Shown piece by piece: positions 56,076 through 56,724 of a stretch of DNA of 64,000 nucleotides. A model generated the notes under the pieces. It saw only the letters and a program-made list of their open reading frames with translations, ran no database searches and was not told the DNA's origin. Location: the NCBI RefSeq assembly GCF_058153355.1, contig NZ_CM177019.1; one strand, 5' to 3'. Numbering within the stretch: the first letter of the stretch is position 1; every line of letters starts with the position of its first letter. Position numbers and translations under genes: made by a program.

Positions 56076-56435
56076 TTACGCCGCCTTGCCCAGCGTAAAA
56101 TCAAAGTGGATGTCGTCATACGGGAATGACGTTCCGCGCTCGCTTTTTTCCAGTAAACCGTTGCTGATGAGTGCGGTCACGTCAGTATGCACGCTTTTTA
56201 CATCACGTCCAACCAGGGCTGCAATTTTTCGGATGGACATTTCTCCGGCACCAGTCATTGCCATCAGAATGTCCATGCGTTTTGGTGTCAGTACCTTATG
56301 CATCATTTGCCAGTCAGGAAATGAAATAACGTTTTCTCTTGTTGCTTTTGCTCCGGTAGCTGCTTCCTGGAACGCAGACAGCACATCAGCCGTGAAATTA
56401 TCCATTGACTCGATTCGGATTGTTACGGTTCTCAT
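56076..56435 (-). CDS. 119-aa winged-helix DNA-binding protein (antitoxin/regulator-like)
   Basis: Internal ATG of ORF 56076..56531 (MRTVTIRIESM...); HTH segment MDILMAMTGAGEMSIRKIAALVGRDVKSVHTDVTALISNGLLE. Confidence 0.5.
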   Translation of the reverse strand: MRTVTIRIESMDNFTADVLSAFQEAATGAKATRENVISFPDWQMMHKVLTPKRMDILMAMTGAGEMSIRKIAALVGRDVKSVHTDVTALISNGLLEKSERGTSFPYDDIHFDFTLGKAA

Positions 56436-56436
56436 G

Positions 56437-56724
56437 TCAGATACCTCTGCGGATGGATTCAACGTCAGCCAGAAAATCAGCGAGCAGTTGTTCAATGGTG
56501 ACAAAGCTGGTGCTGACTTCCTGACTACCAATGTGTTTGTGATCGCCTTTACCCCGTTCGTTGTCGTAACGCATCACACACATGCCATCAACGACATAAG
56601 CCATGCTGTATTTGTAGTTGTGCTGGCTACCCAATACAGCAGGCTCCACTTCCCATATGCGGATTCGTATGTATTCAGATTCACCGAGATGACGGATGAA
56701 CTGTTTATACAGTCTGGATGGCAT
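56437..56724 (-). CDS. 95-aa toxin-like small protein, first gene of a two-gene module on the opposite strand
   Basis: ATG with SD GAGGAAG; MPSRLYKQFIRHLGESEYIRIRIWEVEP...RYDNERGKGDHKHIG...; stop 1 nt before the next start. Confidence 0.5.
   Translation of the reverse strand: MPSRLYKQFIRHLGESEYIRIRIWEVEPAVLGSQHNYKYSMAYVVDGMCVMRYDNERGKGDHKHIGSQEVSTSFVTIEQLLADFLADVESIRRGI

Follow-up and report, generated by a model that had tools for sequence, protein, structure and literature searches.

In the window, i.e. the complete 64-kb stretch of DNA that was analyzed, two minus-strand genes lie among the rightward early genes of a lambdoid prophage. According to the ORF list and the sequence, the first gene, tumE, spans positions 56437–56724, starting with an ATG at 56724 and ending with a TGA at 56439–56437. 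It encodes a putative toxin of 95 aa with a TumE/DUF6516 domain (Pfam PF20126, PHROG 16135). The second gene, at 56076–56435, encodes a tumA-like partner of 119 aa, an HVO_A0114 winged-helix protein (Pfam PF25212) and putative antitoxin and autorepressor. Its ATG at 56435 is separated from the tumE stop codon by the single base 56436. Two Shine-Dalgarno sites were read from the sequence on the minus strand, AGAGGAAG at 56731–56738, 6 nt before the tumE ATG, and AGAGG at 56444–56448 for tumA, within the 3′ end of tumE. A terminator scan identified a terminator-like hairpin with an 8-bp stem followed by the T-run TTTTTCGTAT (56066–56098, minus strand), which overlaps the tumA stop codon. The preliminary description of this DNA had reported two minus-strand genes amid rightward phage genes, a good Shine-Dalgarno sequence for the 95-aa gene, a spacing of 1 nt between the genes and a second Shine-Dalgarno sequence inside the upstream gene; its coordinates proved exact and the remaining details were found as stated.

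Hundreds to thousands of homologues were obtained for each of the two ORFs, and both are therefore real genes and not chance reading frames. A TTG-initiated version of the second gene (151 aa, TTG at 56531) was rejected, since the homologues and the RefSeq annotation start at MRTVTI, which makes 119 aa the right length. GC content was of no use as a marker of the cassette (0.47 compared to 0.48–0.51 in the flanks). To the left of the pair lie a cI-like gene (53290–53676, minus strand) and, in rightward orientation, a cro-like gene (53773–54012), Rha (55149–55859) and a DUF4222 gene starting at 55879. To the right, three tandem isrK/C4/Rha-Ash units (56836–58469) are followed by rightward replication genes from 58743 onward and then by RusA, Q, and tRNAs. 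A single nucleotide is missing from the DUF4222 gene near 55940 when it is compared with close E. coli relatives (GCTGGGAG to GCTGGAG), indicating either a pseudogene or a sequencing error. A plus-strand ORF of 643 aa (55879–57810), running antisense to the pair and on through the isrK/C4 units, was dismissed as an artefact of this deletion. None of the codons TTA, CTA, and TCA, each of which corresponds to a stop in the codon-aligned antisense frame, occurs in tumE itself.

In profile searches, the 95-aa protein matched the Pfam family ‘Toxin TumE’ (PF20126, formerly DUF6516) with an E-value of 2.4e-15 and a score of 56.7, covering model positions 6–81 of 81. The preliminary description had seen no likeness to RelE, ParE, or MazF and had suspected a poorly characterized DUF-type toxin family, and the profile match bears out both impressions. 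PGAP/RefSeq names the 99%-identical E. coli relatives ‘toxin-antitoxin system TumE family protein’. Among the NCBIfam models none matched the 95-aa protein, so the PGAP name must stem from another type of evidence; this was not counted against TumE membership. In PHROGs, both proteins of the pair fall into families with unassigned function.

An alignment of 105 diverse relatives revealed H35, K38, Y39, D54, N55, E56, K59, G60, D61, H62, H64, F74, L80, and F84 as near-invariant residues, to which the paired alignment of both proteins (see below) adds W24, R52, and Y53. The TumE protein of the window retains every conserved residue, including the putative active-site candidates. Judged from the conserved motifs H-x2-KY and RYDNE-x-GKGDH-x-H, TumE is possibly an RNase. 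The AF2 model of TumE (pLDDT 95.4) displays six antiparallel strands and one C-terminal helix. A sequence search of the PDB with TumE gave no match, and fold searches with the model revealed no solved relative as of 2026, in agreement with the 2023 report. A profile search directed toward the experimentally validated TumE toxins returned solely the short, winged-helix-partnered subclass. Longer homologues (P0133, P0177), examined with the same aim, proved to belong to the same short subclass and have over-called N-termini. On the chromosome of Rhizobium sullae (L010, 4001–4282), the conserved DNERGK loop is absent from a TumE copy (…VVGYGDHKH…) whose partner is intact. By its sequence, this copy is probably a degenerate toxin that has been retained beside its antitoxin.

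The 119-aa protein matched the winged-helix family HVO_A0114 (PF25212) with an E-value of 9.3e-25, and the partner in E. coli relatives of 99% DNA identity is listed in RefSeq as ‘HVO_A0114 family putative DNA-binding protein’. In the model of the fused proteins, an N-terminal strand-helix-strand is followed by a winged helix-turn-helix (wHTH) with a pLDDT above 90. Profile match and fold both place the protein in HVO_A0114 and agree with its earlier designation as a winged-helix DNA-binding protein. Matches to other families were weak or generic: profiles of ArsR, MarR, and Csa3 winged helices were hit weakly, PADLOC returned only the generic wHTH parts of the CasR and Csa3 models, and a sequence search of the PDB yielded weak matches to an ArsR-family regulator (E-value 0.1) and an unrelated enzyme (E-value 0.94). 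According to Foldseek, the C-terminal half superposes on the winged helices of ArsR, CadC, CggR, and NolR over about 60 residues at about 2 Å, a likeness shared with the ArsR/SmtB and MarR repressors in general. In contrast to ArsR/SmtB proteins, the partner reaches only 19.7 bits compared to the family cut-off of 55 bits and has no metal-binding site, and it differs from both repressor groups by an N-terminal, toxin-associated extension that is specific to HVO_A0114. An identical partner protein occurs in a Shigella dysenteriae record. Many NCBI records of homologues of the partner (P0265–P0305, corresponding to window 56076–56435) are named ‘glycosyl transferase family 1’, which is a propagated misannotation. 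As public annotation already names the proteins of this pair, neither this type of module nor this particular example is new. The label tumE/tumA-like can be applied confidently, in keeping with the names now used by RefSeq, and no new category is required.

A scan of one genome per species yielded at least 595 TumE relatives, and the best 80 loci were used for analysis of the gene order. In 78 of these 80 species-representative loci, an HVO_A0114 gene was located directly downstream of tumE, at a stop-to-stop distance of 304–374 nt; the remaining two loci end at contig edges. The toxin gene came first in every locus examined. When clustered at 90% identity, the subclass amounts to at least 7,853 protein clusters. 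Among 5,426 complete E. coli genomes, the whole pair was present in 17, eight times at ≥99% DNA identity and nine times at about 78%. The cassette also recurs in genomic settings that are unrelated to each other. In a Serratia lambdoid prophage it occupies the same position, flanked by DUF4222 and Rha/Ash. Further copies were found in a Salmonella P4-like island together with integrase, AlpA, Bro-N, and a DUF927 primase, in a Thiothrix P2-like element, on a Rhizobium chromosome between dnaB and alr, and on 74 plasmids. Strict pairing together with a distribution that is patchy and mobile usually marks a toxin-antitoxin (TA) module.

A consensus scan upstream of tumE identified a sigma-70-type promoter on the minus strand (56753–56781), consisting of a −35 element TGGACA (56781–56776), a 17-nt spacer, and an extended −10 element TG-n-TATTGT (56758–56753), with transcription predicted to begin near 56746. 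By a motif scan, the palindrome GTTGT-N8-ACAAC was detected at both promoter elements: a distal operator O1 (56774–56791) encloses the −35 and a proximal operator O2 (56746–56763) encloses the −10, the latter having the extended form CTTGTTGT-N8-ACAACAAG (56743–56766). Throughout the 64-kb window, O1 and O2 were the only matches to the palindrome, compared to 0.05 expected. With a promoter, operators and a terminator of its own, the pair is self-contained, and the inverted arrangement that had been described from the first reading of the sequence is confirmed. Enterobacterial relatives keep this promoter/operator layout while their flanks diverge; their −35 element is mostly TTGACA, and TTTCAT in one relative. 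When 59 diverse loci were compared, GTTG-N10-CAAC occurred between −100 and +5 of tumE in 37, and 23 of these 37 had two copies 27–29 bp apart, mostly 28. The density of this motif upstream of tumE was 9.7 per kb compared to 0.010 per kb in the rest of these loci, corresponding to an approximately 1000-fold enrichment in Proteobacteria. Other loci had GATG-N10-CATC or a 9-nt spacing instead.

The second base of the operator half-site covaried with residue 79 of TumA, which opens the predicted recognition helix and lies in R77-D-V-K-x-V-H83. GTTG operators were accompanied by V or I at this position in 66 of 66 pairs and GATG operators by F or M in 12 of 12 pairs, the pairs being related and not phylogenetically independent; the TumA protein of the window has V79. 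That this covariation is without exception in all 78 pairs, from several phyla, argues that TumA reads these sites and that the operon is autoregulated. V79 is, by the same comparison, a probable specificity determinant for the second base of the half-site. The palindromes, their enrichment and the covariation thus point, on computational grounds, to the autoregulation that is characteristic of a type II TA system.

In most non-enteric relatives (L010, L022, L025, L037, L042, L043, L093, and others; −21 to +3), the proximal operator holds a TATAAT-like −10 element and ends in CCAACATG, overlapping the tumE start codon. This overlap suggests that the tumE mRNAs of non-enteric members may be leaderless. 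Gene callers often translate the operator into a spurious N-terminal extension of TumE (‘..VGI.SNM’).

The prophage region of the relatives is full of IS600 and IS1 insertions and pseudogenes, and the adjacent DUF4222 gene is frameshifted in the window, which would be in line with the pair being a decaying, functionless remnant in a defective prophage. We regard such decay as extremely unlikely, given that neither ORF is truncated or has lost a conserved residue, that promoter, terminator, the two operators, and the two Shine-Dalgarno sites have all been preserved, and that the proteins are 99–100% identical in several E. coli and Shigella genomes.

For a model of the complex, TumE and its partner were joined by a (G4S)6 linker and folded as one chain (AF2) using a paired alignment of 58 non-redundant TumE-(G4S)6-partner fusions. 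The fused TumE-(G4S)6-TumA model reached a pTM of 0.83, with a pLDDT below 50 for linker residues 97–123 and an average above 90 for both parts, as judged by pTM and pLDDT alone. Since undocked domains are expected to give a much lower pTM, the value of 0.83 despite a disordered linker suggests docked domains in the model. We take the fused model as indirect support for a complex of TumE and TumA.

Based on these results we consider it likely that the two genes constitute an autoregulated type II TA cassette of the TumE-TumA superfamily, carried by the prophage as self-contained cargo (a ‘moron’). The preliminary description had arrived at a type II TA or abortive-infection cargo pair, and the profile searches of both proteins, identifying TumE and HVO_A0114, agree with it. 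According to the proposed mechanism, the pair would be transcribed to the left from a sigma-70 promoter of its own, opposite to the rightward early genes of the phage, presumably in the lysogen. TumE would act as the effector and, by homology, cause growth arrest via inhibition of translation, and TumA would be translated by coupling to tumE. The N-terminal strand-helix-strand of TumA would bind and neutralize TumE, and its C-terminal winged helix, alone or in complex, would occupy O1 and O2, by which the promoter would be shut and the operon repressed. If TumA were lost or titrated, free TumE would block translation. Toxicity of TumE, its neutralization, and lability of the antitoxin are properties that the pair would share with its family.

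Durairaj et al. (Nature 2023; PMC10584680) defined the TumE-TumA system with its DUF6516 toxins. In that study, growth of E. coli was arrested by six DUF6516 proteins from gammaproteobacteria (e.g. WP_213381069.1), which were neutralized by their neighbours, and one of the six toxins lowered 35S-methionine incorporation; an RNase activity of TumE was proposed, not proven (PMC10584680). The partner was located ‘predominantly’ upstream of DUF6516 in clusters 1, 2, 4, and 6, the synthetic antitoxin fragments had a size of 289–388 bp including flanks, and one cluster-1 partner family was a remote RelB homologue (PMC10584680). As 289–388 bp is too short for a protein of 113–120 aa, the validated antitoxins are not HVO_A0114 proteins. 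The pair in the window resembles TumE-TumA in its toxin domain, its bicistronic organization, and a partner predicted to bind DNA, and likewise in the alpha+beta fold of the toxin, which contains an antiparallel sheet and lacks relatives in the PDB. It differs in several respects. The antitoxin-first order that prevails in the validated clusters was not found here, where the toxin comes first; the winged-helix partner of 119 aa contrasts with the much shorter validated antitoxins; and the minimal toxin of 95 aa has six strands and one helix compared to seven strands and two helices in the family. In addition, the pair is prophage-borne here. Toxicity has been demonstrated solely in six pairs of another subcluster. 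Gene order is not a strict defining feature, since the partner is only ‘predominantly’ upstream, and the toxin domain and the operon structure, as read from the sequence, place the pair in the superfamily.

The toxin-first order is shared with the type II TA systems MqsR-MqsA and HigB-HigA, in which palindromic operators overlap the promoter. The MqsA antitoxin has two domains, an N-terminal toxin-binding and a C-terminal DNA-binding one, similar to what is proposed for the partner described here. This likeness is one of organization alone, with no relationship in sequence or fold: TumE lacks the RelE-like RNase fold, and TumA carries a winged helix in place of the XRE-type HTH or zinc domain of the MqsRA and HigBA antitoxins.

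That the validated pairs belong to another subcluster, and that the TumE of the window is a minimal 95-aa protein with one helix instead of two, would also fit a non-toxic two-protein regulator, in which a winged-helix repressor operates with a TumE-like co-repressor or sensor and no growth arrest occurs. Such a regulator would act on its own promoter and, perhaps, on the divergently oriented isrK/C4 antirepressor module, and the operators do lie within a divergent control region common to isrK in several enterobacterial elements. DeepFRI predictions for the TumE clusters are, furthermore, dominated by ‘DNA binding’ (PMC10584680). However, the near-invariant charged cluster of His, Asp, Glu, and Lys residues resembles an active site and not the surface of a regulator, and the Pfam family was built around validated toxins. 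On alpha- and betaproteobacterial chromosomes and plasmids, the pair is also found with no isrK/C4 module nearby. Its strict pairing and its patchy, mobile distribution are typical for TA modules. Weighing these observations, we find a non-toxic regulator improbable and favor the TA cassette.

As a TA cassette, the pair could serve to stabilize prophages and plasmids or to exclude other phages. Stabilization of the element fits the occurrence on plasmids, islands, and prophages. Many prophage TA modules act in abortive infection or superinfection exclusion, and the position of the pair in prophages and satellites, as cargo with transcription of its own, would be consistent with this being the primary role; an invading phage would release TumE and the lysogen would be killed or arrested before the invader replicates. 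Against this, the defence models of PADLOC-DB 2.0 gave nothing significant with TumE (best E-value 0.045), and a homologue was found in only one of 50,697 deposited phage genomes, an Stx1c phage, most family members being chromosomal or plasmid-borne. The literature that was searched on DUF6516, HVO_A0114, and TumE yielded no functional work past the 2023 paper and no link between TumE and defence. Exclusion of other phages is a possible role, although we think it unlikely to be the primary one; being a statement on role, it is compatible with the TA mechanism and not an alternative to it.

Compared to existing annotation, the added value of this analysis is modest and consists of regulatory details for the most abundant, winged-helix-partnered subclass of TumE. 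These details, namely the two-operator promoter, the pairing of V79 with the operator, and the likely leaderless transcripts of non-enteric members, may be new. They open a route to testing the toxicity of winged-helix-partnered TumE proteins and the activity of TumE in the own background of E. coli.

The three units to the right of the pair contain isrK Hfq-binding sRNAs (56836–56912, 57208–57283, and 57861–57937) and C4 antisense RNAs (56937–57024, 57300–57390, and 57962–58049), and each has a Rha/Ash-like ORF starting with ‘...HPFLKIEVVNGKAV’. They represent a triplicated antirepressor control module of the P1 immI-like, Gifsy isrK type. The Serratia relative has four isrK/C4 units compared to three in the window. 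A divergent isrK is located approximately 103–114 nt from the tumE start in four enterobacterial lineages, i.e. the window, the Stx1c phage, Serratia, and Edwardsiella; a fifth lineage, the Salmonella island, has a C4 match only, approximately 225 nt from tumE. The corresponding junctions between tumE and isrK/C4 are at window 56725–56836, L100 3887–4001, L003 3889–4001, L019 2398–2501, and L006 3776–4001. The TumE proteins of these enterobacterial lineages are about 50–100% identical.

The recurrent, shared divergent junction raises the idea that TumE-TumA is coupled to the isrK/C4 antirepressor switch in enterobacterial phages and satellites, which we hold to be very unlikely. If it were the case, TumA could co-regulate the isrK/C4 switch, or TumE, as a putative RNase, could act on the isrK/C4 RNAs, and the pair would be part of a prophage induction/anti-immunity circuit and not a selfish addiction module.

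Several further observations were made on the surrounding prophage and the window. On the strand opposite to tumE, PGAP CDSs annotated as ‘ash family protein’ and ‘Rha family phage regulatory protein’ (L001 8690–9445; L002 10369–11322) begin inside the 5′ end of tumE, equivalent to about window position 56690 onward on the plus strand, and continue across the genes for the isrK and C4 RNAs. In both records the N-terminus has probably been called too far upstream. The leftward operon of the closest prophage relatives includes a gene annotated as ‘ParE family toxin-like protein’ (L001 3677–3871; L002 5326–5544), possibly representing a second cargo gene of toxin-like type in the same element. 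Rfam searches of the window matched the MicL sRNA (308 nt, 360 bits; located inside cutC in E. coli) and the C0465 RNA, and the left part of the window is therefore host chromosome. In addition, tRNA genes occur in two clusters of four, one of which lies immediately downstream of the late-regulator region of the prophage; MicL, C0465 RNA, and the tRNA clusters are located at window positions 40359–40666, 26291–26368, 7772–8070, and 63218–63525.
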